A stretch of 61,606 nt of DNA, filler included, from Nemertoderma westbladi (GCA_032718475.1; 3 parts of 3 records of this genome joined end to end with filler, not necessarily neighbours in it); one strand, 5' to 3'. Counted from the whole stretch's first letter, positions 6,401 to 52,310 are shown. Notes: generated from the letters alone by a model not told the origin. Numbers and translations are program-made.

Positions 6401-6527
6401 AAAATACTACTAAATTGCACCAAATTTATAGAACTGAACATAATATACGAATTAATGAACTAAAGCTACTGTATAAAAAATGTGTGCAAAATATCTCAGC
6501 TAATGCCCCCCCCCCCCCCCCCCCCCC

Positions 6528-8909
6528 GTAGTGCTTTGGGGTGCGTGGGTGTATATGCCGTGCGTGTTGTGTCTACTGTATGTTTTGTGTAAATGCCTAC
6601 GCGTAGTTGTATGCGGTTACCATCCGCTATCGTATTCTGAGGGGTGTTGTATGTTTATTTCGGGGTTCAGGTGGTGTATCAATACATTCTCGCTGATCTC
6701 CTGTCGGGCCAATCCCTGCACCGGCGGAGGACCTTAATGGTGAACGGTGGTTGAGCGCCATCTGACCATGGACCATGTCTGGCTAGGTAGTGTGCCGCCA
6801 CGGAGCTCCTTCGTGATTTGTTATTGTTTCGTACCGCGTTCCTGTGTGCCATTGTGCGTATCCTAATGGGTTTATATGTTTCGTCTATGTATCTCTCTTT
6901 GCATAAATTGCACGTGGTTTGGTAAATTACGTTCTTTTTTGTGCAGTTGCGTGTACCGTTGGAACATGTGTAACATATTGTGTTAGGTAGTTTGGGGCAT
7001 TTGGGTTTGTTAAGCCGTGTTTGTATTAATATATCTTTTAATTTCCGTCCCGGTGTGAACACAACCCTGGTGGTTCTAGAAAATGGTGACCTTCTAATTA
7101 TCTCCTTTACCTTCCTGCCAACGTCCTCGTTGATGTGGGGGGAGTATGATTGGATGTTTCGGTTGATTGTCTGTTGTGGGTGGAGTACGTTGTAAAGGGA
7201 TGTGGTGTGCGGGTGAGTCAGATTGGGTGATGAGTCTATTGACCACTGCTGGAGGGTAGTTGTTTTGGTGGAGTAACTGTCTGGTGGTTTGTATGGCGTG
7301 TTGCTTGGCGACCGTTGTAGAGCTGTGTAAGATCGTTTTATGTATTAGGTTCCTAGCCGTATTAAGTATCACTGACTTCGGGTGGTGGCTATTGTAGTTC
7401 AGTATGATACCAGCGTTTGTGGGTTTTCTGTATGGTTCTATGTCTATGGTTCCTTGGTCATTGACTTTGGTGTATACGTCTAAGAATGCTAGACCGGTGT
7501 AAGATTTTTCCATCGTGTACTGTATGTTTATGTGTTGTGCGTTTAGAAAATCTAGAAATTGTCCCAACTCTTCCTCCCTATGTTTCCATACTGACCAACC
7601 ATCGTCCAAGAACCGATACCAACACTCTGGTGTTAGTCAGTACGTGTTAAGGTACTGAGTTTCTTTTATATGAATGTAAATGATGGCAAATGGTGCCGCC
7701 GCCCTATTCCCCATACCCATCCCATCTTTTTGTTTATAAAATTTATGGTCGAACTCGAAATAGCTAAAATCTATAACGAGTTGTAATAATCCATAAAATT
7801 CAGGTATGCTGAGTCCAAACATGTTGATACTATGTTTATGTTTATTGGCGAAGTCTCTGACGTCATCGATAGCTTGTCCTACGGGGATACTGGTATAAAG
7901 CGACACTATGTCTGTGGAAAACAGGATGTCTCCTGTTTCCAATGGGGGTAACTCTTTTAAACGTCGTATAAAATCCTCGGTATTTTTTAATTTTTCGGGG
8001 ACGTGTTCTGCGAGTTGGGTCAGGATTTGGCAAGCAAACCAGGCTGGTTTCTCGCCTGCTGACCCCGATGCAGACGAAATAGGGCGTATTGGCACGTCGG
8101 GTTTGTGAGTTTTCGGAGTTCCGTAAAGTTGAGGCGCCCTCAGGTCCTGTGTGAGGAGTCCGGTGGTAACTGTGTCTGGCAAAACGGGTCCGAGAATGTT
8201 GCTGATACCAGCTCTTATCTTGAGGTTGTTTTGTCTCGTTGGATCACGTGGGAGTTCTTCATAAGCGTTGGTGTTGGATGAACTATGATCGTGTACTCTA
8301 GATATGTAGTCCTTCCTGTCCATGACTGCAAACCCTCCCGTTTTGTCTGTTTTCTTTATGACTAATGTACTGTCTCTCCAGAGTTGGTTTAGTGCTGTGG
8401 CTTCCTTACTGGTTAAATTAGGCGTCGTTTTTTGTCCCGAATGTCGGTGTTTTCTATAAACAGCTAGGATCTCCTGTTTGAGTTCTGATAGTTCGTATTC
8501 TAAAGCCTGATCCGCCAGCGGTGGTTTGGTTCGGGGGATATCGGGGAACGGGAGTCTACCCAACTTCTTCCCTATGTAAACGTCGTTACTGGTAGGTTGA
8601 CTGCGGGCTGGGTCAACAGACTGCAAGGGGGCAGTCGGTTGCGGATCCAATATTGGGGCTGTTGGTGGAAGGGCGTGTGAGGAATTAGTCGGAGGGGTCG
8701 CCGGGTTGTGATCTGGGAGGGGTGTATGTGTGGGTCTATTGATGTTGGCGGTGTAAGGTCTCGCTGAGGCGCGTTGCTCTTCTCGAGTCTCGTGTTGTCT
8801 GTTTATTTCTGCCTTCCAGCGGACTCCGTAGGCGTGCCGGCACGCCGGCACGCAAATAAACCGGCACGCCTACGGAGTCCGCTGGAAGGCAGAAATAAAC
8901 AGACAACAC
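6528..8909 (-). mobile_element. Penelope-like retroelement (RT + GIY-YIG), 5'-truncated and disrupted
   Basis: ORFs 7637-8851 (KTDKTGG, LYGTPKTHK, DIVSLYTSIP, QKDGMGMG), 7094-7609 (preceded by WYRFLDD; thumb region LAFLDV, YRKPT) and 6679-7062 (CYTC..C..KNVIYQTTCNLCKERYIDET, GIY-YIG). Fold-back at the 5' end. Confidence 0.92.
8792..8909. repeat. 49-bp perfect inverted repeat (fold-back) at the 5' end of the Penelope-like element
   Basis: 8792-8840 is the exact reverse complement of 8861-8909. Confidence 0.92.
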
Positions 8910-9575
8910 TTTAATGTAAGTCGCAATCGTTATATGTAACCGCCTCTTACCTTCAGTATATCAAGAAGATTGAGGGTTTGTAATTATTCATCGATATTCC
9001 AAATATAATAATATTCCATCAACTGATATAATGAATAACCGACAGTAAATAGCAGTAAAAATGCGGTGTTTGTATTTGACAATATGATTAGGTGAGTAGG
9101 ATGGGTAGGCATTAATTGGTATGTGGTTTGATAACAGATATACGTTCTATGATTAAGCCTACTAATGTTTTGCTAAAGCCTGAAAACACAGAGGTTCCAA
9201 AGCCGGTCTTCTGGCTGTGGACAAATACACATACTGACTCAATTCATGAGTTTCTGTATACAACCTCCAACACAGAGTCAAAAAACGCTCTGATTGGTCG
9301 ACCGAACAAAGAAACGACAGAGAACAAAGAAAAAGCTCCATGTGTACAGATCAGCTGTTAGCTGTCGTCATAGTAACTACACTGTGTCAAGAGGATTTTG
9401 GCTATTGCGACATAAGATCGCTAGTTATGTCCGCTAAAGTACACAGTTAGTTATGTCCGCTAAAGTACACATATAGAAGAAATGGCTTTTATGTCCACTA
9501 AAACACCGGTACAGTAAGGAAACGGCTTTTTATGTCCGTTAAAACACCTACAGAGTACTTTGCGGGAAAAATAAC
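8910..9575 (-). mobile_element. Diverged fragment of the BEL/Pao LTR family seen at 34976 and 46107
   Basis: The reverse complement matches LTR blocks such as ttatttt.ccc..aaagtactctgtag, ggacataaaa, and ttcttgatata.cgaaggtaagag...ggttaca.ataa.gattgcgac. Confidence 0.75.
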
Positions 9576-10334
9576 TAGCTAGATTTTATTTTGCACACAT
9601 TTTTTTTTTATACAGTAGCTTTAGTTCATTAATTCGTATATTATGTTCAGTTCTATAAATTTGGTGCAATTTAGTAGTATTTTAGACAGCCGTACCACCA
9701 ACCAATAGGAAGCAAAAACAAGGGAGGGGGGGGGGGGGGTTGCATGCAACCCACCACTTACCGGTAAGGAATCACAGACTGTCCTGTAGTAGTTTAGCCC
9801 TGTATGTACTTCCGTACTTTACACCTGCGCATGCATTCTGCCTGAATTGAGTTGATAAAGGGCTGTTGCCCGAAATATACTTGGTTATTTCATTTTAAAT
9901 CATATTTTTGGTCACTTAGAAAAAGGTCCTTCTAAACGCACTAACTCAAACAAATGATACCACCGGTGACCTGGGCAAAAACCTATTTACAGAGATATGC
10001 AAAATTTGTATCTTTAATTTTTTTGACCTACCAGTAACCATAGCAACCATTTTAAATATTTATTAAATCCGAATAAATCTATTAATTAATTCATTTTTAT
10101 TTGTAATTATTAGCTCTTTGTGTACCAAAGATAAATCATTTCATAAATTTTTACTTCCAAGGACCAAGAAAAATATATTTGATCGCACCAAGGTTTATTT
10201 TGTGTCGTACCAGATATTTTTATATAAAGAGGATAACCATTATTTTACTTATCCTTCCCTCAAAGGCGGCACAGTGCTGCATTTAACCATTTTCGAAATT
10301 TTAAATTCTTTCACTGCCTGCCGCCTTGCCTTTA

Positions 10335-11595
10335 CTCTATTAAACCCAGGGGGGGGGGGGGGGGGATCTGATATATTATGACTTTTCCTAAAAATCTATT
10401 GTCTTCCTAATAGTGAAAACGGTTTTCAAAAATATTAGAGGTTTTCGAGTTGTAGCACCATTTTTTAACCCTAATTTTGGCACTTTTTTTGAGACGTCTT
10501 TTGAAAATTACATTTCATGAAATATGATTTGAAACATCTCTATTTTTGATTTACACCGGTTTTTTGGTGTCTGCAATTAGATGGAATCATATAAATTAGT
10601 TTAGAAATTTCAAACTTGTTTTTTTCGGCGTGTGCAAAATTTTGGTGCCAGCACCAAATTTTGAAATATCAATTTTGTAAATTGATTGTTTGAACCTGTT
10701 TTTTGCGCAATTGGGGTTCTGGTTTCAATGGAATATATGAGTTGCACCAGGCGTATCAAGCTTGTATTTTTCGGTGCTTTGTGCAAAATTTGGTGGCAGC
10801 ACGAAATTTGGAAAATCCATTCAATAGTTAAATTGCTTGTGACAACTTATTTCTCGCGTTTTAGAGGTTTATGGCTTATGTTTATAAATAATTATCTAAC
10901 TAGACATCTCAAACTATATTTTTTGGAAGTGGGTGCAAGTGAAAGTGAAAGTTTGAAAACCATCAAATATATCAATTGATTGTGTCACCTTGTTTCTTGC
11001 GTTATACGGGTTTGTGAGGGTTCTGAATTCAATGGAATTAGTAAAAATTGCATAAGAGTAAGTAAGTGTATTTTTCGCCGGTGGGTGAAAATTGTTGTGC
11101 CAGCACCAAATTTTTGAAAATATGCAAATTGATTAATAGATAGTATCATCTTGTTTCGTATAAGTGAAATAAAAAAAAATTTATGTTCAAACTGAAAAGT
11201 GCTGGTTACTTGTTTTTTATTCTTTTTTTGCCAACATAGAGGACTAAAACAGACATTTATAGTAAACAGATCATTTTAAAATATTTTCAAATGGATTTTG
11301 CGCCCCAGAAAACCTGTATTGAAAAACAATTAACCGAAAATTGTAACTTTCAAATTTTATGAAAATTGTTCACTACTTATAATTTTGGTACTGTAAAATA
11401 ACCACCCCAGTACATTTTTTCGAAATTATTTTCGGTCCGATTCGGACTAGTGAAATATATGTAGATACAAAAAATCAGGGGTTTTCGTTAAAATTTGTAG
11501 ATTTTAACAGGGGGGGGGGGGGGGGGGGTCAATATGACCCCCCCCCCCCCTCGGTATTTGTACAATATTTCATAGGGTTAATAGTACTAATAGGG
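10335..11595. mobile_element. piggyBac-like (TTAA, CCCT...AGGG) non-autonomous element
   Basis: The right end is aatagggttaa and the left end is a degenerate ttaaccctattaaaccc followed by a G-run. A homologous left end occurs at 30901-31162. Confidence 0.55.
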
Positions 11596-11703
11596 TTAAA
11601 TCATTTGTAACAAAATTATTGGCTAAATTGAAATTGAATTCCATAAATTATGTATTTTAAAATGCCCTCAAACCAATAGGTTGACTTCAAACTATGGACC
11701 CAC

Positions 11704-12150
11704 ATGTGGTATTTGAAGGAGTTCGATTCCAATACAAACGGTTGGGCCATACGAGATCTATATGCCCAAATCTTAGATATGATGTCACCAAAAGTAATTA
11801 AGGACAGGATAGTTGATGAAATTAAGAAGCGGCCATTATTATTGGTAGTGGATGGTGCCAAATGCCATTTGGGATTAGAAACTCTAGAGTTGTGTCGGGA
11901 TAACAATATATCGGTTCTAAAGTTTCCATCATATGTAACTGACGTCTTGCAACCTCATGATATCTCCATGTTTCGTCCCTTTAAAGCTAAGTATGATACA
12001 TTGTTGCAAACAAGGAATGCTGCAACTGGTGCCGGTTTTGTACCAAAGGCTGAGTTTCTTGAGATTTTATCAACAGCTAGGGAAAGAGTCAAGGAGATAG
12101 TCGTCAAGGGGATTCAAACAACTGGAATCAATTCACCTGACAGTACCTAA
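11704..12150 (+). pseudogene. pogo/Tigger/Fot1-type DDE_1 transposase fragment (Tc1/mariner superfamily)
   Basis: Motifs NGW, LLLVVDGAKCH, and LKFPSYVTDVLQPHDISMFRPFKAKY. A probable right terminus cgtgactctccc|TA ends at 13362. Confidence 0.85.
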
Positions 12151-13499
12151 ATATTCAGACCCTCAGATGAATGCCAGGTTTGAACTTTGGGTTGCTGCCG
12201 ACAAGCCTACTGATTCAAAAGGAGATCCAAAGGATCCTCATGTTCCACTAGATCATTATGAGGCCAGGCGAGCGAGCAGGAAGACTGGGAGGAAAACCCT
12301 CTGGACCCATAACTGAAGACTTACCTTCGGCTAATTTGACACTCAGTGTAACAGACTCTGATGGGTCAGAGTCAAGTGACGTAGTGACACCTATATCTTC
12401 TATACCATCTGCTTCACGTTTATCCACTTCAACACAACGATCTCTGGATAACTTAATCATACCACCATGTCTTGTAGATAACTTTCCACCTGGTTATGTT
12501 TGGCAGAAACAGGTTGTTTGGGTATATACATAACCAACCAGAGCCAACCATAGAACACCGTAAATCAAACTAGAAGACCACTTAACTTGGATGTGGAATT
12601 GTTCCTGGTGCCCAGGTGCTAACCCATGATGTTGTTCTTAATGCCATTTAGGGCGAAGGAAGAAGAGAATAAGAGAAAACAGAAATCTCTGTTCGAAGTA
12701 AACTGAGTCAGCAATCAAGATCACTGTTAATTGAATTGAATGCTGTTCCGAAAGAGGACCCTGATAGTATTCAGCAGATATTTGCAGATATTTCTTCTTT
12801 GCAGATAAATTATTATTGGGAACAGCTCATTTCTCGTGATAAAGGTATTGGTGGTAAGCCTGGTAGCTGGCTATTTGATTATCTTACTCAAACACTCAGC
12901 TAAACCTTCGAACCACAGACACTCTGTGGTCATGGCTTGTTGACATTAACCCTAATGCTCAGTGAGATATCAGCAGCATTGATTACGATGATTATTGATA
13001 TATATTCTTTGGTCCTGGCTCACCCTAGCTGGCCCAAGGAACGCGAGTACTTGCACTCATCTTTGATGAAGGTTATCTAAATGATATGTTTACATTACAT
13101 TTATACAATGATACATTTATGGTATGACCTTCTTAATGAACATATATGACATTAAATATGCATATATAGTGTTTAATTACAAATATGAATCACAAGTTAA
13201 ACCTTTTTATTAAGTAAAAAAAAGAGCCGTTTTTTTCAACTTTTTTTTTAGAATTTTCATTCTATAAAAAATGGTAAATTTTTGGAATTTTCTCAGTAAT
13301 CCCAAAGGAAAATTGAAATCATTTAGGTGTAAGATATCATGTGGCGGATGCGTGACTCTCCCTATATGTGGCCCCTTATACCTTTTAACCATAAAAAAGT
13401 ACAAAACTGTTTGTACAGGTTGGCTACATACCCTTATAATGAAAACCTTTTTTAATTAGAGCAGTTTACTATACATCTAAACAACAATATTAAGGGGAA

Positions 13500-14640
13500 A
13501 TCCCACCACATTCTTGATTACATATCTATCACATGAACCCATCAATGACCCCAGTGCCGAGGACGTCACAGACGATGGAGAAATGTTAGCATATTTCCGC
13601 GTGACCACACACAGTACAATAGCTGAAACTTAGGATCATACAACGGGCCACATTGCAGACCCTCTCCTGGATTCCCTGCCTAAACACAGCAAAATATGAC
13701 CTCAACTACATCAGTTACACACACCGTGTTGTTGAGACAGGATTCTCCACTGCTTCCCGCTCGGATCCAGCTGTCGGAATGTATTAGGCGATCTGGGATG
13801 AACTCACCACGGACGGCGACCTTGTCTTATTCAGGAGTCCACACTGCCACCCACAAGGAGACACTCCACGCCTCCCACCAGGGTATCGAGCATACGCTGT
13901 GTCGAGCCCATCAATGCGTCTATTGGTCTTGACTAACTAATGACATCACTACCATGGTACGGGGTCTGTAACGAATGCATGCAACGTTAAAGTCTTGGAA
14001 AATAAACATTTGTTTGTGACCCACCAGCCACTTGACCATTCGATGATATGTTAGCTGACCTTTTTGCTCTAAACAGAAAGCACTTCATGGTAATGGATGA
14101 TCATTACTCTGTGTGACTGGAAGTCCAACCATTTACAACATACCCCACTGCAGATCATACAATACATGGCATCCGCAAAATATTTATCCAGTTCAGTGTA
14201 CCAAACTGAATACGTACCGAGGGAGGAACACTGTTTACTGCAGCTGTGTTAACCATGTTCCTTAAACACCTGGGAGAATACCCCCAGAGCAACGGCCACA
14301 CTGAGGCCACCATTAAAGCCCTGAAAGGACTTCTTCCCAAGACAGGGGCTTTCATTCAGTCTCCAGAATTCCAGAAAGGACTTCTGGAGTTGAGAAAGGC
14401 CCCATGTGCCAATGGAATGTCACCAGCTGAAATTATATTTGGACACCCCACTCGCACTTGAGTGCCAACACACCATTGTGTGTCCCCCCACATCATCCAA
14501 TCAAGGTACAATACCCTATCACCAAACGATGGGACCATGCAGGCCATGTAGTGGAAACCCTGAATTACCATGTCTGGATGCCATCTGGACGCACACTCAT
14601 CCAGAATCACCAACACGTATTAGTTGACTCCACCATGATG
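13500..14640 (+). pseudogene. Degenerate Gypsy/Ty3 pol (integrase) remnant
   Basis: LHASHQGIEHTLCRAHQCVYW (H2C2 zinc region), YPQSNGHTEATIKALKGLL, and LLELRKAPCANGMSPAEIIFG, spread over broken frames. Confidence 0.85.
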
Positions 14641-15402
14641 TCATCGACAGAAGCGCCCATAACAACAATGATATATATACTATACATACATAACATAATT
14701 ATAAGCTCGCCCAATATCATATATAGATAGATTTAATTACATGATCAGCCATTAGGAGGCATGACAATTATTCTGTACTGTTGCAATACTGTTGTATGAT
14801 GTAGGCCTAAAATCTAATATACATGACATTCTCATTCATCATTTTGGAAGCCCACATATTGTTACTTTTGTCTTGCTCCCATCCAAAGTTTGATGGAATT
14901 GTTGATTTAGGATGAGGCATAATGTGGTGTTTGTTCCACATGATAGAATGGTAAATTCATCTTAAGAGACATTGTTGATTGTTGAAGTGTGTCTTTAGTT
15001 GGAGGAAGTTGAATTTGTTTCTTTTTAAATAGCCATCACCTTAACTCTGCTAGTTTCAATTTTTGTTCCTTGGAGATATACTTGGCAAATATATTCTTCC
15101 AAAATTGCAAAAGTTTTATCTTCTATGGGTTGTCTGGTTACTCATCTCTATAAGTTTCCTGATAATGTACGTACCCCTTTGCTTGCTTCAATGCATTCCA
15201 AAACATTGTCTTGCCTTTCCCAGCAAAACATCCTGTAATATATGTGCTACTGAGGGCATGGAGAGTGGGAAGTGCCTTGGCCACATCTTTACCAATAGCT
15301 GAGTGAGTATGTCTGCCCTATGGATGTTAATCTTAGGTTTGTGTAAGTACCATTAATTAAATTTGTGTTGCAGCAAAACATGGATATCTTTGCATAGCTA
15401 AG

Positions 15403-15656
15403 ATGAATACATCGGTATCCAGTGAACTTATAGTTAGTACAGATGCCCCATGAAGTGTTGCATCAATGAATACATTGGTATCCAGTGAACTTATAGTTAG
15501 TACAGATGCCCCATGAAGTGTTGCATCAATGAATACATTGGTATCCAGTGAACTTATAGTTAGTACAGATGCCCCATGAAGTGTTGCATCAATGAATACA
15601 TTGGTATCCAGTGAACTTATAGTTAGTACAGATGCCCCATGAAGTGTTGCATCAAC
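15403..15656. repeat. 63-bp tandem repeat, 4 copies, inside the Academ-like remnant
   Basis: Unit atgaatacattggtatccagtgaacttatagttagtacagatgccccatgaagtgttgcatca. Confidence 0.92.
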
Positions 15657-16398
15657 ACCATGAAGGATTATCTATGTGTCGACTTCTTCTTGTTCGCTCT
15701 TCAAGTAACTCATATCGTAAAAATTGAATCAGAGTTTGAACTCCAAGCTACAACAATTTTTTTCAGAAGGTGGAATGGTTGTTATAATATTGTAAGATAT
15801 GAAATTCGTAAGTTCGTTTTATTTCTAGTATCCAATAATAAGGTTTTCATAGTTATATTCTTTATATTGGTGGTGTTGGTAATGTGACAGTAGACTGGAA
15901 TAAGTCAACCTCAACCTCGCCTTATAATGCACATGGCTGTCTTCAGCGAGTTGTATACATCATATCATTCAAAGATATGTACTGATGATATGATATATAC
16001 TGCATCCATTCACTCATATTTATTTAATATTTGACTGTTAAATATGTTTGCCAGTTTGGAGCATATTGTTTATTTACATTTTTTTTCTCCATAGATTACA
16101 GTTCAGTCATTCCATCTACAATAGTAGAGATATTATTGCTTCTGGAATTGTCTAGCAGATCAGTTGATCGTTTTGTGGTTGAGTAGCTGTCTTCTCAATA
16201 AGTTTCATAATAGTAATTTTGCAAGAGCATTTCAACATGTCACCATTTGCAGAAAGAAATGTGTCCTTTTCTTCTTTAAATACTACAACACCTCTGTTAC
16301 CTACTGTTACTTTAATATTCTTACCTGCTACTTTTCAAATTTGCAACTTTTCAAATTTGCAGTCTCAATTTTTTTTTATTGTTCCTCATATATTAATG

Positions 16399-16652
16399 GT
16401 GTCTTTAGTTGGAGGAAGTTGAATTTGTTTCTTTTTAAATAGCCATCACCTTAACTCTGCTAGTTTCAATTTTTGTTCCTTGGAGATAGATATACTTGGC
16501 AAATATATTCTTCCAAAATAGCAAAAATTTTATCTTCTACGGGTTGCCTGGTTACTCATTTCTATAAGTTTCCTGATAATGTACCCCTTTGCTTTCTTCA
16601 ATGCATTCCAAAACGTTGTCTTGCATTTCCCAGCAAAACATCCTGTAATATA
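16399..16652. repeat. About 255-bp direct repeat of 14989-15243
   Basis: gtgtctttagttggaggaagttgaatttg...catcctgtaatatatg is present twice with a few substitutions. Confidence 0.9.
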
Positions 16653-17010
16653 TGAGTAGTATAGAAAACCAATAAATGAGCGCACCAACTACCCCCAGGT
16701 TAAAATTTACTCCTTACCAGACTGACATATTTCTGAAAACTACCCCAAAATTTCAACTACTTTTTTACACCAATTTATTACAAATTATCATATTCACCTA
16801 ATTTTTCGCTTAACAAATTGATGGATTCCAATTTTCTGAAAATAGTTCACATGTTCTGACTCTATATGAGCGCAATATGATTAGAAGTTCATACAGAGGA
16901 GAGTTGCACCAATCCAAATGTTCTGTCCAATATATTTATTGTCTTGCTGTAAGTAAGATTACGTAAAAAAAATTATCTATTTAAGAAATTAAAACTAATA
17001 GAAAATTTGT

Positions 17011-19613
17011 ATGGCTACTACTATATGTGAAAACATCAATAAACCAACTAGTATGGATGCTACACAGTTTGTAACATTTGAACAGATGGGATTCAGAGTT
17101 CCAAAGTCAGCTTGCATGCATCTACTGTTAGAGAATGCCTATGAGTCTAATCTTCTGACTGATATATCAAAAGTAGATTACCTAGCAGGCAATGGAGGTA
17201 ATATGCTGCTTCAAGATGTGCCTGAATTGGAAATGTTTGTTGACGATCTTTATGTGTATGGGTATCTTCGAGAAGATCAAGTTGTGAAAACCAAAAGTTC
17301 TGTCATGTTAACAACTGGAAGGTTTGGGTCTGCCTCGTATATTGTGGAGAAGTTGAGGAGGGAGGCAACACAAACAATCGGGAAGAACTGTGATGACTTT
17401 ATACACACAAAAATATTAGCCTCTGTACCATTACAATCTCATGGAGTGATTATGCAAACAGTGCATAAAATTGAAAGAGAGATGAAGGAGAAAAATATCA
17501 AAAACTGGAAAAACCTGGAACAAAAAGAACCTATTGCTGTCTTTGTTGCAAAGTTGGATGTATCTGTAATCAACCTAGATGATCTGCAGGAGCACTTGGC
17601 TGAATTTGGCAGAATACTGCAGACATGTGGATGGGGAATATACTCTGTGGACTACACAAAGGACTTTGCTGGAACACTTGCTGGAACACTTGATAGGAAG
17701 GCAATAGTCAAACATCTAGTGGAAACAAAAGGTTGGAGGTTGGAAGGGACATTTCAAGCAGCATTGGAGGGTGATCAGCCCACAATTTTGGAAAACACTT
17801 CGTCTGTGGGAAATCATGTGTTGACATACATCACATCTTGGGGCGGAAATACAATGAGAGTGAAGCTGTGCAACAAAATTGTTTCCAGTTTGAAGCAGGA
17901 GAAGTATTGGAGAATTTTTGAGGGCATTTGGCAGACTATGCTGATTGCAGGAACCCTGTTCTTCGGAAATCCTTAGAACATCCATTGATCCAGCAATATG
18001 GATGTACAAGAGTTGAGATATCCTTGTACTCTATGAATTACATATCTAGAGATCTTGGCGTGGAAGTGATGAGAAGTGCATTAGAAAACATACAGCCATA
18101 TGAGGGATTATTTGTACAGCAAAATGGGAGGAATCACTGGCGAGCTCTAGCAAAAGAGGTGACAAGGTGTTGTGTCATCGCCTCTAAGACCACAGGAACA
18201 ATATATGTAGCTTGGTATGCTCACACAAAAACTGGGAAAGTTTCTGGAGTGAAAGTGCAGTGTAAGTTTGATAAGTTTCTGGAGTGAAAGTGCAGTGTAA
18301 GTTTGATAAGTTTCTGGAGTGAAAGTGCAGTGTAAGTTTGATATACAAGAAAATAGACTATAGTGGAGTTGTTCAGAAGTTGGATTTCGAGGTTGTCCTA
18401 TATTTTGCTTCCAAATTAGAAATGAAAATGAAATTGAAAAAGGGCACAGAAATAGCACCTCTGAAATGCTATTTCAAGGACCCCACTGCAAAAACAATAC
18501 TTTGCTCACCGAAACTACCAACACAGTAGTGTAGGTCAGTTCAAGCAAGAATTCCATTGGAAGAAATGCTGCCACCAACAGATTTCATAGAATGGACATG
18601 GAGACAAGAGCCATGCAAATCATTGGGTACAGATGCAATGGAAAATACAAGAGGTGCCTGAATACTTGCAAACACATCAGGTATCTTGGTTGTCAACCTG
18701 GAAGAGAGCACAGAGAAACATTGATATTCTGGTTGATTTAGAATGTGAAAAATGGAGACAAGATGCACTGCAAAGAAATGCTAGAAACCAAGAAGAAGTA
18801 GCCTTGATACACAAAAGGTTGCTGGAGTTCAAGGAAAGAAAACAACTTGAAACTGAACACAAAGAATATGTTTTGAATCTGCTGAAGCATACTCCCATAC
18901 ACAAAATTTCTGAGCTGGATGGCGTGAAACCATTGCAAGCAGCAGTGCTTGGATTCCGACATGCAGTTGGACCCTACAAAAGCTATGAGGTATTACTTTC
19001 CATTAATGGTGAAAATTTCAAGGTATATTCCAACCGAGGATTGGAGTGTGTTTTGGATGAATTGAGAGATGCTTTTCACAGAGCACAAGAACCAAAAACA
19101 CGAAAAATTTGGTTTTTGGTTGCTTCAGAGTTAAAAGTTGAAATTAAAGCAGCCAAACAGTTCACAAATGATAAGCAACAGATAATCACTTGGTATCCAG
19201 TGACATTATTGTCAAGTCCAATGGAAGGCGAACAGCGAAAAATTCAAGAAAGATTGAAGAAAGTTGAAAGTGAATATGAGAAGGCCAAGTCCATGTGCTT
19301 GGTTGAATATCCTGCAAAAGAGAAGAGCAGTGTGAGAAAAGTGCTTGAATTGGAAGAAGGTGAATATCAATGTATAGCATACTGGAACCAGAGCTATAGA
19401 GGAAAAGTGCGTCATATATTATATTTGCAGAACAAGGATGGTAAATCTGCAAGACCAGTGTATGGTTATTTCTTGCAGAGAGAAGTTGAGCTGATGCAGT
19501 GTGATTTGTCCACAGTACTGTCTCCACTGCTAGTGAAAGTAGGAAGAACAAAAACAACACCACAAAAGAACAAAGATAGAATTGTCACTATAGCACACAA
19601 TGAGACCAACTAA
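17011..19613 (+). pseudogene. Frameshifted gene of about 840 codons with Rep_trans-like rolling-circle initiator motifs and a beta-rich C-terminus
   Basis: Consecutive ORFs 17011-17976, 17928-18287, 18338-18529 and 18633-19613 join through small indels and a 35-bp triplication. Motifs IYSVDYTKD, RVKL(C)NKIV and CTRVEISLY. No introns are evident. Confidence 0.5.
18239..18343. repeat. 35-bp tandem triplication disrupting the Rep-like gene
   Basis: agtttctggagtgaaagtgcagtgtaagtttgata starts at 18239, 18274 and 18309. Confidence 0.92.
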
Positions 19614-19627
19614 CACTTTGGAGCATC

Positions 19628-19914
19628 ACAAATCAAAAACAATCAAACTGAAATCAAGATAATCAAACAGAAATAAAACAAACAATCAACAGACTGCAAT
19701 CAAAAACAATCACAGAAGCACTGTCAGGAATACATTCAGACTTTCAGTCTGTGTCCCTCTCACCCATGCCTTACATCAAACTGCAATCAAAAACAATCAA
19801 ACTGCAATCAAAACCGATCAAACTGAAATCAAAATATTCAAACAGCAATCAACAAACTGCAATCAAAATCAATCACAGGCACACTTTCAGGCACACTTTC
19901 AAGCACACTTTCAA
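19628..19914. repeat. Short direct-repeat cluster (aatcaaac/aatcaaaa units, plus gcacactttca x3)
   Basis: Seen directly downstream of the stop codon at 19613. Confidence 0.75.
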
Positions 19915-20062
19915 GCATATGAGATAAGAGCTACCACAAAACCACTAGACCCAGGAAAAGGCTCAGACATAAGCAGAGCAGTATGGGGTCAAACAATTCA
20001 GTAAATTACAGTTCCAAAATACTTATCACGAACATAACTGTGGTACCTATTTAAAATATTAA

Positions 20063-21345
20063 TTTTTGGCTACCCTCTATTTTTGGGGGCAGCATTTTTG
20101 GCTACCCCCTATTTTCGGGGGAACATTTTTGGCTACCCCCTATTTTTGGGGGCACCATTTTTGGCTACCCCCCATTTTTGGGGGCAGCATTTTTGTCTAC
20201 CCCCTATTTTTGGGGGCACCATTTTTGACTAGCCCCTATTTTTGGGGGCAGCATTTTTGGCTACCCCCTATTTTTGGGGGACCATTTTTGGCTACCCCCT
20301 ATTTTCGGGGGCACATTTTTGGCTACCCCCTATTTTTGGGGGACCATTTTTGGCTACCCCCTATTTTTGGGGGCACCATTTTTGGCTACCCCCTATTTTC
20401 GGGGGCACCATTTTTGGCTACCCCCTATTTTCGGGGGACCATTTTTGGCTACCCCCTATTTTTGGGGGCAGCATTTTTGGCTATCCCCTATTTTTGGGGC
20501 AGCATTTTTGATGGCCCCCTATTTTGGGGGGCAGCATTTTTGGCTACCCCCTATTTTTGGGGGCAGCATTTTTGGCTACCCCCTATTTTTGGGTCAGCAT
20601 TTTTGGCTACCCCCTATTTTTGGGGGCAGCATTTTTGGCTACCCCCTATTTTTGGGGGCAGCATTTTTGGCTACCCCCTATTATTGGGGGCAGCATTTTT
20701 GGCTACCCCCTATTTTCGGGGGCACCATTTTTGGCTACCCCCTATTTTCGGGGGCACCATTTTTGGCTACCCCCTATTTTTGGGGGCACCATTTTTGGCT
20801 ACCCCCTATTTTCGGGGGCACCATTTTTGGCTACCCCCTATTTTCAGGGGACCATTTTTGGCTACCCCCTATTTTCGGGGGACCATTTTTGGCTACCCCC
20901 TATTTTTGGGAGCAGCATTTTTGGCTACCCCCTATTTTCGGGGGCGCCATTTTTGGCTACCCCCTATTTTCGGGGGACCATTTTTGGCTACCCCTATTTT
21001 TGCGGGCACCATTTTTGGCTACCCCCTATTTTTGGGGGCAGCATTTTTGGCTACCCCTATTTTTGGGGGCACCATTTTTGGCTACCCTCTATTTTCGGGG
21101 GACCATTTTTGGCTACCCCCTATTTTTGGGGGCACCATTTTTGGCTACCCCTATTTTTGGGGGCACCATTTTTGGCTACCCCCTATTTTCGGGGGCACCA
21201 TTTTTGACGGCCCCCTATTTTGAGGGGCAGCATTTTTGGCTACCCCCTATTTTTGGGGGCAGCATTTTTGGCTACCCCCTATTTTCGGGGGCGCCATTTT
21301 TAGCTACCCCCTATTTTCGGGGGCAGCATTTTTGGCTACCCCTAT
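20063..21345. repeat. About 32-bp satellite, roughly 40 copies, each with a CCCCC-TATTTTT-GGGGG hairpin
   Basis: Consensus tttttggctaccccctatttttgggggcagca, with cacca and gacca variants. Confidence 0.97.
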
Positions 21346-21492
21346 AACGTACGCTCTCAAACCATACTCAGAACTATACCAATCATTCACAGCTTTTGAG
21401 ATCAATCGGAACAAAGATTCCCATTCCTTCTCATAAAACCCTATCTGAATACCCTGATGGTCTTTCAAAAATATAATATATAAGTTAAAATA

Positions 21493-21685
21493 TATGAAGA
21501 CAAATGAAATAAATGCTACTGTTTGTATTTAAGAAAAGTGATATTCTATGTAAACAAATTCAAATAAGAATAATAAAAAATAGATTTGATAAAGGCTATG
21601 CAATATAGCCGAAATATCATCTGTAGAATAAAAACATCACTTTTCTTAAATACAAACAGTAGCATTTATTTCATTTGTCTTCATA
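21493..21685 (+). repeat. Pseudo-LTR-like 5' end of a Penelope-like element: 50-bp fold-back enclosing a hammerhead-like motif
   Basis: 21493-21542 is the reverse complement of 21636-21685. Confidence 0.8.
21581..21623 (+). ncRNA. Degenerate minimal hammerhead-like motif
   Basis: tagat-TTGATAA-a-ggctat(gcaat)atagcc-GAAA-t-ATC-atctg has helix I and helix II, but the core deviates from CUGAUGA. Confidence 0.45.
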
Positions 21686-21782
21686 ATTACTAAATTTACA
21701 AATGCTGGGCAGTGCATATTATTCATATGTTATAAATATTATCTTCATTTATACACTGTTCCCTTTGAAGCTGTTTTGTATT

Positions 21783-24536
21783 ATGGACCAAAGTTTATGT
21801 TCCATTCAGAAAGAATTATTACATTGTAGTGAGAAGTACGCACGATATAAACACCATGTTGAGTACCTAAGACATCACCAACGATGTGGAAGTATACCAC
21901 TTGGTTTAAAAGTAAAATTTCATTGCGGCGCAACTGATAACATTTTATGTACAAAAGTCAATTCATCTTTAAAGAAATGTTCAAAAAAATTAATTAGTAT
22001 TTTTTTGAACCACAATAAGAGAAACATGGATGAGCTAAAGGCAAAACAAAACCAGATATTAAACAAGGCTACGAACAATGAAGACCGTATGGAACTAGAA
22101 AATAAATTAATTGAGCGTATTACAAACCTTTCCAAGTATTATTCCAAAAGAGAAATAAATAAATACAAACGCAATGGTCTATGTCTGCATTCAGAAGCAA
22201 AACTTCAACAACAAGATATTAGTGAGCAACTAAACGGGAAAAATATTAGTGTGCCTGTACATGTACAAGATAACAATATAAATATTAACGATGACAACAT
22301 ACTTGAACTATCGGGAATATTGGACTCGGGCAATAACATAATAAATCAATATGAAGAGAGTGACAGCATAATAGAATTATCCGGAATATCAGACTCAGGC
22401 GAAAACAAAATAAATCAACATGAAGACAGCAACAGCATAATTGAATTGTCATACAACATAGAAAATCAAAATAAAGACAGCATGATTATATTATCTGAAA
22501 GTGTATTGTTTAAAGGTGATGCAGATAGTAATTGTAAAAGCACTATTGCGGAAATACCTATTTACGAAACGGATATTGACAGTTTAAAAGAGGAGGGATG
22601 GTTAACTGACAATATTTTGGAAAGTTTGCTTAGATATTGGTGCGATTGCAACACGAATACTTTGAACAGAACATTCAACACACATTTTTTTGAAATATTA
22701 AACTCTGAACGTGGGGGATACAATGCCATAAAACAATGGACTTCAAAAATAAACATATTCAATTACGATGGTTTGTACTTCCTGGTCCTTATGAATGGTA
22801 ACCATTGGGTTTTAGTAATATTTAAACCGAAATCACGAAAAATATTTTACTTAGATTCTATGGGTGGACAAAATATAAAGATTATAAACAGTTTAAAATA
22901 TTGGATTAAAAAAGAGGCATTGAAAAACAACATTTTGGACATCGAAATCATAATAGAACCACCAATAAAAATAGTACAATTTAATAGTTATCAATGTGGC
23001 GTGTACGTATGTAAGTTCGGTAAAATGTGTATAGACAGTAGTGATGGTATTTACAACCTTTCATATGTAAATGAGAACAATATTAATGTGTTTAGAAATA
23101 AAATGAGATCATTAGTAAATGATATTATGTCAAAAAATAATAAAGAAAGTCTAGGAAATTTGGAGAAATCCTTAAATGTTCTAGAACAGGAAAATGAAAG
23201 CTTTGGAAATGTTAATGTAACAACAAATAGTAACGTAAAAGTATTTAATTTAACAGAACAAAAAATTGATCCCGGACTTATTAAATTATGTAGTTTGGGG
23301 CCTTCATTTGTACCACAGCCAATGAGTGTCAATTGGGATGATATACAAAGAAATTGGCAAAATTTTAAAAGAAAAGTGCTATGGAAAGCGTTTTTTTATA
23401 AAGACAATATGGAAGTAATTAATATAGAATCAGCAGACAAAGTTGACAATTCATTATTTCCACCACACATAGCATCAACACGAAATCCACCAAAATGCAA
23501 TATTCCAGCAATCGAAGTATTTCTTGACAGTATTGAGAAAGATATTTTTAAAGATACTAAGTTAAAGAAAGTAAGAGACAACATAGATCCTCAAGAAAGA
23601 GGAGCGTTAAATAAATTTAGAAAAACAAACATAAATGATAAGGAATATATTATGAGATTACAAGACAAAGGAAATTCTTTTGTATTCATTGATAAGGAAA
23701 CAGACAACAAAAAACTAAAAGAGCAAATGGATTGTGGATCATTTAAGAAAGTTGAAAAAGACCCGAGTTTTACAATTTTAAACCAAATTACAAACTGGAC
23801 TGAAAAATGGAAAGACCTTGGACTAAGCAATAAATGGGTAAATTATATTTTATTAAACTCTGAACCTACACCGGGCACAAATTATCCAAGAATAAAACTA
23901 CACAAAGAACAAGCACCTGCGCGTGTAATAACATCAGGTTGTGGTAGCGCAACAGAAAATCTTTCTCAATTTGTAGAAACATACTGCAAAAAGATAGCTA
24001 ACACATTACCACATCGGGTAAAAGATACCTCACACATGCTGGAAATAATAGACGAATTAAATTTACATGAAATTGCAGATAATGATATATTGATTAGTTT
24101 TGATATTATTAATATGTTTCCTTCTATTGACAACAAAAACGGGATCAATATAGTTTCTAATAAATTAAAAGAAAATATACACTTGTTTGATGTACCTTCT
24201 GACTGCATTATTGAAGCATTGGAAATTTGCCTAAAAAACAACGTATCACAGTATCAAAATGAGTTTTGGATACAAACAGACGGCACTGCAATGGGACCCA
24301 AAAATTCTTGTTCTTACGCTGACATAGTGGCAGGAGATATTGATATAAAAGTAATTAACAAGAAAAAAAGATACCCTGAATTAAGATGTTGGTTTAGATA
24401 CAGAGACGATATATTCTCCATATGGCGTGGTTCAAAAAGGCGTCTATTCGAATTCTTTAAGCTATTAAATACATTGGATCCAAAACTTAAGTTTACACTG
24501 GATATACAGTCCCGCTCTCAAAAAGCATTCCTTTGA
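21783..24536 (+). CDS. Penelope-like retroelement polyprotein: N-terminal domain, SIM-like repeats, Ulp1/SENP (C48) protease and reverse transcriptase; 3' end cut off by an insertion
   Basis: Uninterrupted ORF (open from 21702). Protease motifs GWLTDNIL, FNTHFF, NHWVLV, YLDSMG and QFNSYQCGVYVC. RT motifs VFNLT, LGPSFVP, RLQDKG, SFDIINMFPSID, QTDGTAMGPKNSCSYAD and WFRYRDD. Confidence 0.92.
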   Translation: MDQSLCSIQKELLHCSEKYARYKHHVEYLRHHQRCGSIPLGLKVKFHCGATDNILCTKVNSSLKKCSKKLISIFLNHNKRNMDELKAKQNQILNKATNNEDRMELENKLIERITNLSKYYSKREINKYKRNGLCLHSEAKLQQQDISEQLNGKNISVPVHVQDNNININDDNILELSGILDSGNNIINQYEESDSIIELSGISDSGENKINQHEDSNSIIELSYNIENQNKDSMIILSESVLFKGDADSNCKSTIAEIPIYETDIDSLKEEGWLTDNILESLLRYWCDCNTNTLNRTFNTHFFEILNSERGGYNAIKQWTSKINIFNYDGLYFLVLMNGNHWVLVIFKPKSRKIFYLDSMGGQNIKIINSLKYWIKKEALKNNILDIEIIIEPPIKIVQFNSYQCGVYVCKFGKMCIDSSDGIYNLSYVNENNINVFRNKMRSLVNDIMSKNNKESLGNLEKSLNVLEQENESFGNVNVTTNSNVKVFNLTEQKIDPGLIKLCSLGPSFVPQPMSVNWDDIQRNWQNFKRKVLWKAFFYKDNMEVINIESADKVDNSLFPPHIASTRNPPKCNIPAIEVFLDSIEKDIFKDTKLKKVRDNIDPQERGALNKFRKTNINDKEYIMRLQDKGNSFVFIDKETDNKKLKEQMDCGSFKKVEKDPSFTILNQITNWTEKWKDLGLSNKWVNYILLNSEPTPGTNYPRIKLHKEQAPARVITSGCGSATENLSQFVETYCKKIANTLPHRVKDTSHMLEIIDELNLHEIADNDILISFDIINMFPSIDNKNGINIVSNKLKENIHLFDVPSDCIIEALEICLKNNVSQYQNEFWIQTDGTAMGPKNSCSYADIVAGDIDIKVINKKKRYPELRCWFRYRDDIFSIWRGSKRRLFEFFKLLNTLDPKLKFTLDIQSRSQKAFL

Positions 24537-25158
24537 TCAAACATTGATCAAACTTTGATCAAACATTGATCAAACTTTGATCAAACATTGATCAAAGTTT
24601 GATCAAATATTGAAATGAACCAGGCTTATAAATCCTGCCATTGAGTTCTACCAAAGGCGCTGCACTTCAAAGTCTAGATTCCCACTGAGCCGTGTGTCAA
24701 TCAAGCAGCCCTCACTCTCTCTCTCTCTCGCTCTCCCTGTGTGTGTAATGCTCCATGTGCTCTGTAGGATGTCTGCAGAGCACACAGGACACCACGTCCA
24801 TATCATACCATCGGTTTGTACGCTATAGCCGTTATTTAAACCGGACCGCCTAGGTTATAATAATTTACAGCGATTATCAGAAAATAACAGCCGCAATTGA
24901 ATCTCCACTTGGCGGTGTGGTGGTAATGAAAGCAAGGGCGGGTATGGGCTGTGTGGGGTTTAATTCTGAGTTAAGCAATGTGTTGGGTGGATGGCTACAA
25001 ATACATTATAAAGGGGGGGGGGGGGGGCAACTAGCGTACCGAGCGAGGGGAAGGCCATTTGAAAGCATACTGATAAACCCTTTCCAGTTGAAATGAGAAA
25101 AAAAAATAATATATATATTAAAGATCCACATTTCAAATTTTCTGAAACAAAAGCATTT
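24507..25158. mobile_element. Insertion starting TA|CAGT (possible Tc1/mariner-type end) with a TTGATCAA palindromic array
   Basis: RT homology stops at ...KFTLDI. An 11-bp repeat ttgatcaaac(a/t) occurs about 7 times at 24533-24610. The other end is lost in the gap. Confidence 0.4.
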
Positions 25159-25258
25159 NNNNNNNNNNNNNNNNNNNNNNNNNNNNNNNNNNNNNNNNNN
25201 NNTTAATTAATTAANNNNNNNNNNNNNNNNNNNNNNNNNNNNNNNNNNNNNNNNNNNN
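25159..25258. other. Artificial assembly spacer (N...TTAATTAATTAA...N)
   Basis: An all-frame stop linker flanked by Ns, identical in layout to 52114-52213. Confidence 0.95.
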
Positions 25259-32534: not shown

Positions 32535-33498
32535 TTATTCCAAAATTGTAACATTACTCAACGCCGTTAGTATTAACAGCGATTTGTTATTTAGTACTTT
32601 ACAACTTTAGATGACATTACAGCATTGTATTGTCCTGTACATGTAGTATTGTATTTGGTGTTATCAGTTAAGTAATATCCCATTAGTGGACATTACAACA
32701 CGCCGTCATTGGTTACCACGTAAACAATAGGTGGAAATTTGCCTGACACCTAGATAGGCCTACTGCATTACCTACCGGTAGGCGGGGTATAACTATTAAT
32801 AACCAGTAGCTATAAACTATTAGCATGGCTGCAAAAGGCCATTTTCCCCGTTCAATAGAAGTGCATTAGGTGGGAGTGTGAGTGTCAGGGGCTAGTGGCT
32901 AACCTGGATAGCGCTACTGATGAGGCCTGTTAGGCCGAAACGTACGTATAGCGCTGGTTCAACCCCCGGTGATGCGCTTTCTCATTTTTCCACTTCTGAA
33001 CAAACCCATAATATTACATCATAAATATAAGCTAACTTATTTATAACATAATTTATGTCATTTTTACAATTATTTATACAGCAGCTAATTTAATTTGTGC
33101 GGTTTCTATCACTTATAATGTATATGTACAATCATTTCGTAATGTTAAAATTTTGGAATAAAACTACACATACTTGTTGCAAAGTACTTTACAGTGTTCT
33201 GATCCTCGTGGCTTTATTTTCACTCACTCACTAACGTCACCTACCGCCTACAGGCAGGTAATGCACTAGGCCTATCTGGCTGTCAGGCAAATACAGTACC
33301 ACCTATTGTTTAAGTGGTAACCAATGACGGCGTGTTGTAATGTCCACTAATGGGATATTACTTAACTGATAACACCAAATACAATACTAAATGTACAGGC
33401 CAATACAATGCTGTAATGTCCTCTAAAGTTGTAAAGTGCTAAATAACAACTCGCTGTTAATTCTAACTGGGTTGAGTAATGTTACAATTTTGGAATAA
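32535..33498. mobile_element. Intronic MITE with about 250-bp TIRs
   Basis: 32535-32785 is the reverse complement of about 33244-33498 (ttattccaaaattgtaacattactcaac...). Confidence 0.85.
32910..32955 (+). ncRNA. Minimal type I hammerhead ribozyme
   Basis: agcgcta-CTGATGA-ggcct(gtt)aggcc-GAAAC-gtac-GTA-tagcgct: perfect core, 7-bp helix I, helix II, palindromic helix III and a GUA cleavage triplet. Confidence 0.93.
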
Positions 33499-38466: not shown

Positions 38467-38961
38467 ATGTCTGACACAACCCAATCACTGTCGGATAGTC
38501 TCCTAGATATTGTTAGAATGACTGTTAGACAGTGTCTTAAAAAGATCAGTGACCCAGATCCAAGTATAGAACATCCTAGATCCAAGTCTAAGTCACCTCC
38601 TGCTGTGGGAAAGGCCATCCCTACAGAAGTAGTGTCAGATCCTAGGCTAGTCCAACATCGTAGGTCTATCATCGGCACTCGGGCCCAAGTCAAGCGGGAT
38701 CAAGAAGCAGCTGTCAAACAGCAGCAACATCCTAGCCAAGAACCTAGTTTTCAGCGGCCCGATAGCTCCAGTAGTTCGGATACTGATGAGCGGACGCCCG
38801 AACGCGGAGTGAAAATGGTGGATAAGGTTTATGATGAGCGGCCAACCTATGAAGAATCAACCGACGCCACTTTTTCTCAAGAAGAAAGCGAAGTGACAGC
38901 AGAGAAACCGCATAAGAGGGATGCTATTGACATCTATCTGTCAGACTATCAACGCTTGTAG
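38467..38961 (+). CDS. Probable N-terminal part of the BEL Gag (upstream frame)
   Basis: ATG-started 164-aa low-complexity ORF that overlaps the open frame of the 1289-aa ORF at 38931-38958. Confidence 0.6.
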   Translation: MSDTTQSLSDSLLDIVRMTVRQCLKKISDPDPSIEHPRSKSKSPPAVGKAIPTEVVSDPRLVQHRRSIIGTRAQVKRDQEAAVKQQQHPSQEPSFQRPDSSSSSDTDERTPERGVKMVDKVYDERPTYEESTDATFSQEESEVTAEKPHKRDAIDIYLSDYQRL

Positions 38962-38972
38962 GAGATGAAGAG

Positions 38973-52113: not shown

Positions 52114-52213
52114 NNNNNNNNNNNNNNNNNNNNNNNNNNNNNNNNNNNNNNNNNNNNTTAATTAATTAANNNNNNNNNNNNNNNNNNNNNNNNNNNNNNN
52201 NNNNNNNNNNNNN
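52114..52213. other. Artificial assembly spacer (N...TTAATTAATTAA...N)
   Basis: Same layout as 25159-25258. Confidence 0.95.
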
Positions 52214-52310
52214 CTGACCCATTAAGTAAAGTAAGACTTATAAAGATAACATATACTATAAATGATCGCAGTGTATTAAGCGTGGACCAAATACTAGTGT
52301 TGCGACAATA

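Follow-up and report, generated by a model that had tools for sequence, protein, structure and literature searches.

Ulp1-like cysteine proteases (Pfam Peptidase_C48, here C48) are carried by several groups of transposable elements. Among the closest described cases are the nematode non-LTR retrotransposons NeSL and Utopia-1_TSP (PMC4640811), target-primed retroelements in which the Ulp1-like protease lies ahead of the reverse transcriptase (RT) in a single protein and is patchily distributed among relatives. Ulp1 domains are also described in KAONASHI, other MULEs and CACTA elements (PMC2528002), as the preliminary description of the present DNA had noted for MULEs, and in CryptonF/S (PMC3212892). 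OTU-like proteases are described in Helentrons (PMC6431247). Among Penelope-like elements, a Josephin-like motif is described in Chlamys-1_cBra; there and in Dualen elements, a Ub/Ubl-protease-like domain on the retroelement protein was proposed to disturb protein degradation (PMC8557442). The purpose of Ulp1-type domains in many unrelated transposons is not established in the literature examined, PMC2528002 and PMC3212892 included.

The window, a stretch of 61,606 nucleotides from Nemertoderma westbladi assembled as a repeat mosaic of N-joined contigs, contains a Penelope-like element with a C48 domain inside its single ORF. NeSL and Utopia-1_TSP, which share the features listed above with this element, differ from it in RT class, in their restriction-like endonuclease and in their site specificity. 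The present element has a pseudo-LTR and a hammerhead-like motif, and its protease is internal, behind an N-terminal domain and an array resembling SUMO-interacting motifs (SIMs). The MULEs, CACTA elements and Cryptons likewise have a C48 domain on a mobile element, but they are DNA transposons of plants and oomycetes and the protease is often on a separate or reverse ORF. Chlamys-1_cBra resembles it in having a Ub/Ubl-protease-like domain on a retroelement protein but belongs to a permuted, N-terminal-EN green-algal clade, and its domain is C-terminal, of weak homology and of ubiquitin type. Also close is the Neptune/Nematis type as described in PMC8557442, with a single ORF, DKG, a pseudo-LTR with inverted fragment and a hammerhead; its CX2-5CxxC linker and CCHH-type GIY-YIG are seen in close relatives of the present protein. 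However, this type is without the ~325 extra residues of SIM-like linker and C48. No mention of a C48 domain in Penelope-like elements was found in the accessible text and supplement of PMC8557442, nor any report elsewhere in the openly available literature, with subscription journals, Repbase, Dfam and supplement figures falling outside the search. The C48-bearing Penelope-like architecture is apparently undescribed, within a known theme of Ulp1-carrying transposons; the novelty is narrower because Ulp1 domains are known in NeSL, Utopia and several DNA transposon groups.

A stop-free frame runs from 21687 to 24536 and its first ATG, at 21783, opens an ORF of 917 aa (21783..24536, plus strand; protein P0001), as previously described, which is element-derived as far as 24506 (aa 908). 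The N-terminal domain (aa about 8-140, 21804..22202) was recognised by phmmer and blastp from its matches to the protease-less relatives P0093, P0002 and P0006-P0010 (E 2e-9 to 1e-23). It is followed by an acidic linker with a SIM-like repeat (22292..22448), located by tandem-repeat and motif scans, by the C48 (Ulp1/SENP-type) cysteine protease domain (22515..23129), located by Pfam and PDB matches and by alignment, and by the pre-RT region and RT core (23238..24506), all on the plus strand. The RT core contains QDKG, FDIINMFP, GTAMG and YRDD, the last at 24399, and the region is 51-56% identical to P0002-P0005, P0216 and P0228. Pfam RVT_1 did not match the RT of P0001, which was recognised through these relatives and motifs, and no Pfam GIY-YIG match was found within aa 1-917. 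The pre-RT and RT blocks of the preliminary description are thus present, YRDD included, but the RT is cut before the thumb at 24506.

Residues 1-150 and 486-908 match the same Penelope-like proteins (for P0002, E 2e-13 and 7e-148), so the protease sits between native element segments and the N-terminus is of Penelope-like type, both as proposed. In the relatives the two matching segments stand only a few tens of residues apart. Compared with these protease-less proteins, P0001 has an insert of ~325 aa comprising the SIM-like linker and C48, in frame at both ends. The GC content is 0.29 in the protease domain and 0.31 elsewhere in the ORF, a matching composition. Read-through from a neighbouring gene was rejected because element homology flanks the protease on both sides.

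The protease domain appears complete. The profile comparison suggested earlier gave a Peptidase_C48 match to aa 273-449 with E 1.1e-16 and 61.7 bits against a cut-off of 20.7, and PDB matches included SENP1 (E 1.4e-16) and Ulp1 (1.4e-13). Alignment to SENP1 placed the catalytic residues exactly where they had been read from the DNA, namely His341 (22803), Asp358 (22854), the oxyanion Gln399 (22977) and Cys405 (22995), and the WLxD and HW tryptophans are present. The His-Asp-Cys triad and oxyanion Gln are invariant in the C48 alignment (A2), and none of the listed variants touches these codons. With the domain alone as query against the PDB, SENP1 scored 65.8 bits, SENP2 60.7 and Ulp1 57, followed at lower scores by SENP8 (NEDD8; 20.4), ChlaDub2 (17.7), SENP7 (17.2) and adenain (11.8). 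This ranking favours SUMO as the substrate of a protease predicted to be of the SENP1/2/Ulp1 type. A NEDD8- or ubiquitin-type, or viral-type, CE protease was rejected as first choice, the bit scores being far below those of SENP1, SENP2 and Ulp1. An AlphaFold model built on a 3-row alignment was poor (pLDDT 47.5); Foldseek still ranked SENPs top for this low-confidence model, with E near 1e-7, although the superpositions had a TM of only about 0.4 and an rmsd of about 10.

The linker contains a 69-bp (23-aa) tandem repeat in 2.3 copies which places three acidic-flanked SIM-like motifs directly before the protease, ILEL at aa 173 and IIEL at aa 196 and 219. The scan used a pattern which we take to be a simplification of the SIM and which was picked after the sequence had been viewed. 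Among 80 other N-termini, three had one such motif and none had more than one. Shuffling of the linker gave three motifs in 6 of 10,000 trials and one motif in about 19%; the three motifs are not independent because all derive from one tandem repeat. In Ulp2, SENP6 and SENP7 several SIMs are described beside the SENP domain, where they are linked to the recognition of poly-SUMO (PMC12687455). The P0001 catalytic domain is thus nearest to cellular SENP1, SENP2 and Ulp1, whereas its multi-SIM extension resembles Ulp2, SENP6 and SENP7, and it differs from the cellular enzymes in having a SENP1-like core and a tandem-repeat SIM-like array fused into a retroelement protein. The three putative SIMs ahead of the protease lend support to the deSUMOylase reading.

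The ends of the element were located from repeats and contigs. A 5' pseudo-LTR, a copy of the element's 3' end, occupies 21540..21685 (plus strand, right border approximate) and was identified from an X2 contig which runs from 23769 to 24506, through 1050 other letters, into 21540-21685. Abutting it, 21493..21542 (minus strand) is an inverted 50-bp copy of the pseudo-LTR end, matching 21636-21685 exactly, an arrangement described for Penelope-like insertions (PMC8557442). At its 3' end the window copy is interrupted at 24507..25158 (strand unassigned) by one or more very high-copy repeats, recognised from the sequence, contig depth and an N gap. The repeat enters at a TA dinucleotide, begins CAGT and has an 11-bp palindromic tandem repeat at 24533-24613; we presume it to be Tc1/mariner-like. 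Contig depth at its boundary (24476-24651) reaches 6,000-25,000, the window contig stops at 25158 and the N gap begins at 25159. The last 9 codons of the 917-aa ORF belong to the inserted repeat. No thumb or endonuclease of the element was found within the window since the repeat cuts the element at 24506. In the relatives, 322-323 aa follow the corresponding position, and the 1050 letters of the X2 contig fit this length plus a short UTR and the pseudo-LTR, from which the full-length protein is estimated at about 1230 aa.

P0001 is of the Penelope-like RT class, being 51-56% identical to proteins with PF28514 and PF26215 and nested among them in the RT tree described below. The pseudo-LTR with adjacent inverted fragment and the predicted hammerhead motif within it are further Penelope-like features. 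GIY-YIG was found at the C-terminus of the relatives P0003 and P0228, and the closest relatives have it with CCHH; the window copy ends before this domain, whose length the 1050 letters fit. The CX2-5CxxC linker is found in P0002, P0003 and P0228 and was not matched in P0216, the region being absent from the window copy. Two assignments were rejected on motifs: the Hydra clade has DKT instead of DKG and no CCHH, whereas P0001 has QDKG and its relatives CCHH-type residues; the Naiad/Chlamys clades have GIY-YIG ahead of the RT, whereas none is present in aa 1-917 and the relatives carry it C-terminally. A motif search of the Craig et al. supplement for a clade name gave no match. Judged by these motifs the element is probably a C-terminal-EN Penelope-like element, Neptune and Nematis not being separable without named references. 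The RT phylogeny called for earlier places the element among Penelope-like proteins, with Hydra and Naiad/Chlamys set aside by motifs and no named references in the tree.

Further copies were sought, as had been advised, and were found in three of six DNA runs (X1, X2 and X3) from two samples and two studies, one of which may be the source of the window. In all three runs, overlapping contigs tile the ORF from the N-terminus to the RT with both junctions at 95-100% identity. One X1 contig spans 22836-24298, starting just short of the catalytic Asp and reaching the RT; the whole ORF is not covered by any single public contig. Other copies extend beyond 24506 into the RT thumb (contigs in X1 and X3). 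No joint skipping the whole protease was found among the contigs of the three runs, recognising that contigs drop rare variants, and none of eight loose ends lay at the protease borders. The Nemertoderma westbladi data showed no form of the family without the protease. The fear that sibling elements might all lack the domain is thus not borne out within this organism but does hold for the closest siblings elsewhere, which are all without C48. Contig depth rises stepwise toward the 3' end (76, 86, 164 and 298 in X1; 72, 84, 152 and 282 in X2), which hints at 5' truncation, although contig depth is not copy number, and the flanks give discordant depths from run to run (33 to 482 at 21300-21495, for instance).

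At least three haplotypes were seen. Among the listed changes private to the window copy, all seven are non-synonymous, and within the protease X3 contigs have a stop codon, a single-base insertion and a deletion of 365 bp. Together these suggest that many copies are decaying. Around the catalytic His, all three runs show a pair of variants separated by three synonymous changes and one non-synonymous change; with the neutral rate, for transitions only, taken as 0.32, p is 0.10. This is suggestive of purifying selection on the protease, below significance. Elsewhere these runs also contain a related C48-like stretch of 40 nt.

The distribution of C48 among relatives was examined in 241 stored proteins, of which 225 match the pre-RT/RT; in 81 of the 225 the pre-RT is preceded by 120 aa or more. 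The C48 search of all 241 found P0001, P0099 and the non-element protein P0059, so only 2 of the 81 have the domain, and the closest relatives (51-56% identical) are without the entire insert. P0099, of 1115 aa, has C48, RT and GIY-YIG in one ORF with C48 in the same slot; the triad is intact and a single SIM-like motif follows the protease. Over 153 aa this protease shares 24% identity with that of P0001, and it is nearest to yeast Ulp1. The 4-kb contig that encodes P0099 bears a bacterial MAG label, probably through misbinning, and the protein forms a single-member cluster. Its retrieval was favoured by the C48-containing query, unlike that of the OTU and JAB proteins mentioned below.

The RT tree contained 60 of 161 adequately covered rows, hand-picked for spread and without named reference elements, and was built under LG+G4 with a quick search and SH-aLRT support only. 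Four proteins without the protease form the sister group of P0001 (support 100), and the clades around them likewise have none. P0099 falls in the opposite half, and a forced clade of P0001 and P0099 was rejected (p-AU 3.9e-5). Two independent gains of C48 would be the simplest reading, the alternative being a single old gain followed by many losses.

Among 32 related DNA loci found via RT alignment (31 metagenomic, one genomic and no viral), none had C48, with the N-terminal domain covered in only four. Eighteen of these loci match at only 21-29% and may belong to other elements. A word-limited search of 5.8 billion proteins with the C48 region gave no close match among 2058 candidates, a search of low sensitivity since cellular SENPs were also missed. 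P0099 as query retrieved only itself and one RT-region match, and DNA scans with P0001 or P0099 as query found nothing. In the ESM Atlas, aa 240-700 of P0001 had no usable match, and P0099 matched generic Penelope-like clusters only, C48 not among them. Of the 225 element proteins, 69, mostly chosen for long N-termini, were scanned with Pfam, which found C48 in two, OTU in one (P0187) and JAB in two of one cluster (P0181 and P0209). The OTU domain of P0187 is apparently in the same slot, its N-terminus matching the shared domain weakly (E 1.8), and the JAB domains of P0181 and P0209 are at the very N-terminus.

We give roughly even credence to the reading that the C48 domain is an element-borne SUMO isopeptidase directed against SUMO-based host defence, most likely chromatin silencing. 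The ~1230-aa protein would be made from pseudo-LTR-driven RNA and would enter the nucleus together with that RNA. The SIM array may then hold proteins bearing SUMO chains, much like the SIMs in Ulp2, SENP6 and SENP7, and the protease would strip SUMO from chromatin proteins where the RT-endonuclease acts or where copies of the element lie. Silencing factors would be the most likely targets, so that SetDB1-type repression would be recruited less effectively through SUMO. The piRNA-guided recruitment of SetDB1 is described as needing both SUMO and Su(var)2-10 in Drosophila (10.1101/533091). The domain would be an optional accessory captured by the Nemertoderma element lineage, because relatives without C48 have complete RT-endonuclease ORFs. 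The second, apparently independent fusion in the distant P0099 supports a deSUMOylase, whereas the rarity of C48 (2 of 81) counts against it. Counter-silencing, one of the two functions initially put forward, therefore keeps the SENP1/2/Ulp1 type, the SIM-like motifs and P0099 on its side, while the signal of purifying selection (p 0.10) falls short of significance. The element makes a compact test case in that a single protein has close relatives differing essentially only by the ~325-aa insert.

The other function initially put forward, cutting of the element's own polyprotein, fared badly and we consider it very unlikely. Adenoviral and poxviral proteases of the CE clan do process their own polyproteins, P0001 is a single long ORF, and membership of the same clan is echoed in a weak Pfam Peptidase_C5 match (E 0.039). 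However, the only Gly-Gly pairs, at aa 311 and 361 in P0001 and at aa 283 in P0099, are all within the protease with none at the domain borders, the domain is far nearer to SENPs than to adenain, and the relatives manage without it. More weight, though still a minor share, goes to an active deSUMOylase whose main target would be the protein or RNP of the element itself, or else the nicked intermediate of integration, and which would remove SUMO chains leading to SUMO-targeted ubiquitylation, degradation or repair-mediated abortion of the insertion. Fusion in cis suits such self-protection, and the OTU, JAB and Josephin-like domains (the last described in PMC8557442) of other Penelope-like proteins suggest evasion of Ub/Ubl tagging at large more than of a single chromatin pathway. 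It is made unlikely by there being only three psi-K-x-E/D sites in aa 1-917 and none in the RT, the C-terminal third being outside view, and by the complete ORFs of relatives without such a domain.

The domain might also be a passenger, a host or transposon Ulp1 fragment captured in frame by chance and carried without benefit. All close relatives are without C48, the selection signal is not significant, Ulp1 domains are common transposon cargo and the 40-nt C48-like stretch elsewhere in the runs could be a donor. This is improbable given that the insert is in frame at both ends with intact catalytic residues and matching composition, that the SIM-like repeat is triplicated beside the protease, that C48 fills the same slot in the unrelated lineage of P0099, and that the word-limited protein search found no close source. 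A chimeric assembly, or a rearrangement peculiar to this single copy, could be suspected from the mosaic, N-joined nature of the window and from the absence of a public contig spanning the ORF, but the tiling of both junctions in three runs, with no protease-skipping joint, leaves it scarcely credible.

A broader form of the preferred deSUMOylase reading would be that animal Penelope-like elements possess, ahead of the RT, a slot for accessory domains into which SUMO and ubiquitin deconjugases have come independently; here a poly-SUMO reader-eraser made of tandem SIMs and SENP would take away the SUMO marks needed for piRNA-guided heterochromatin. The gains in question are C48 twice, OTU, and JAB at the N-terminus, and we put this forward tentatively, as possible but doubtful. 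Repeated capture of three Ub/Ubl protease classes would show which layer of host defence presses on Penelope-like elements, and the Nemertoderma protein, if the reading is true, would be a transposon-encoded enzymatic counter-silencer in animals.

Within the pseudo-LTR, a pattern scan and folding gave a minimal type I hammerhead-ribozyme-like motif of the U3-A8 variant at 21580..21624 (plus strand), one of two pattern matches in the window. Helix II is preceded by one additional base and helix III is palindromic; these traits and U3-A8 fit hammerhead features described in PMC4209133. No hammerhead match was obtained with Rfam. Helices II and I of the motif pair in the predicted fold (z -3.9), and a similar motif is present in 9 of the 14 closest related loci scanned.

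The region of the main element's C48 (Ulp1/SENP-type) protease that holds the catalytic Gln and Cys codons was found to recur elsewhere in the sequencing data. About 40 nt at window positions 22974–23013 are present in other contigs of runs X1–X3, the three DNA runs (two samples, two studies) whose contigs also match this Penelope-like retroelement; the piece listed for X1 carries 7 differences from the window. Beyond these ∼40 nt the contigs diverge from the element while their frame stays open. Judged from sequence, this pattern would indicate that the organism has a C48-like paralogue, either a gene or an element, and this paralogue is possibly kin of the donor, the presumed source of the protease domain.

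Accessory domains also occur in related Penelope-like proteins, with an OTU domain in P0187 and a JAB/MPN domain in P0181/P0209, the catalytic motifs appearing intact by inspection in each case. Together with the related protein P0152 these form one clade with a support of 100. Within the same subgroup, the Penelope-like protein P0039 has an N-terminal extension of ∼540 extra amino acids, and a Pfam scan of this extension gave no match. The best match in the ESM Atlas to P0099, a distant Penelope-like protein with C48, RT and GIY-YIG domains, was a 61-member cluster of Penelope-like proteins of ∼1616 amino acids, far above the usual length.

The window contains a second, decayed Penelope-like element at 6119–9947 (minus strand, ORF pieces 6679–8869), which is without a protease and whose RT shows 25% likeness to that of P0001, the 917-amino-acid protein of the main element. 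An inverted repeat of ∼370 bp lies either side of it (6119–6493 and 9587–9947). Further along, at 32910–32946, is a hammerhead motif of canonical appearance (C3–G8 core, 5-bp helix II) enclosed by a 255-bp inverted repeat with arms at 32535–32785 and 33244–33498, possibly a retrozyme or a Penelope-like remnant.

From their appearance, we take three other segments to be mobile-element remnants, with putative identities as a Bel/Pao-like gag-protease ORF (38931–42842), a MULE-like transposase (52266–53708) and an RTE-like non-LTR element (56528–59461). The N runs at 25159–25258 and 52114–52213, the former showing a short AT spacer mid-run, look like artificial contig joins, and the sequences that meet at each run may lie apart in the genome. 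Two ORFs of 324 and 340 amino acids occupy 17002–19613, and a Pfam scan of the second (340 amino acids) gave no match. The main element is adjoined on its upstream side by a satellite of ∼40 copies of a 32-bp unit (20062–21342), which yields spurious long ORFs.
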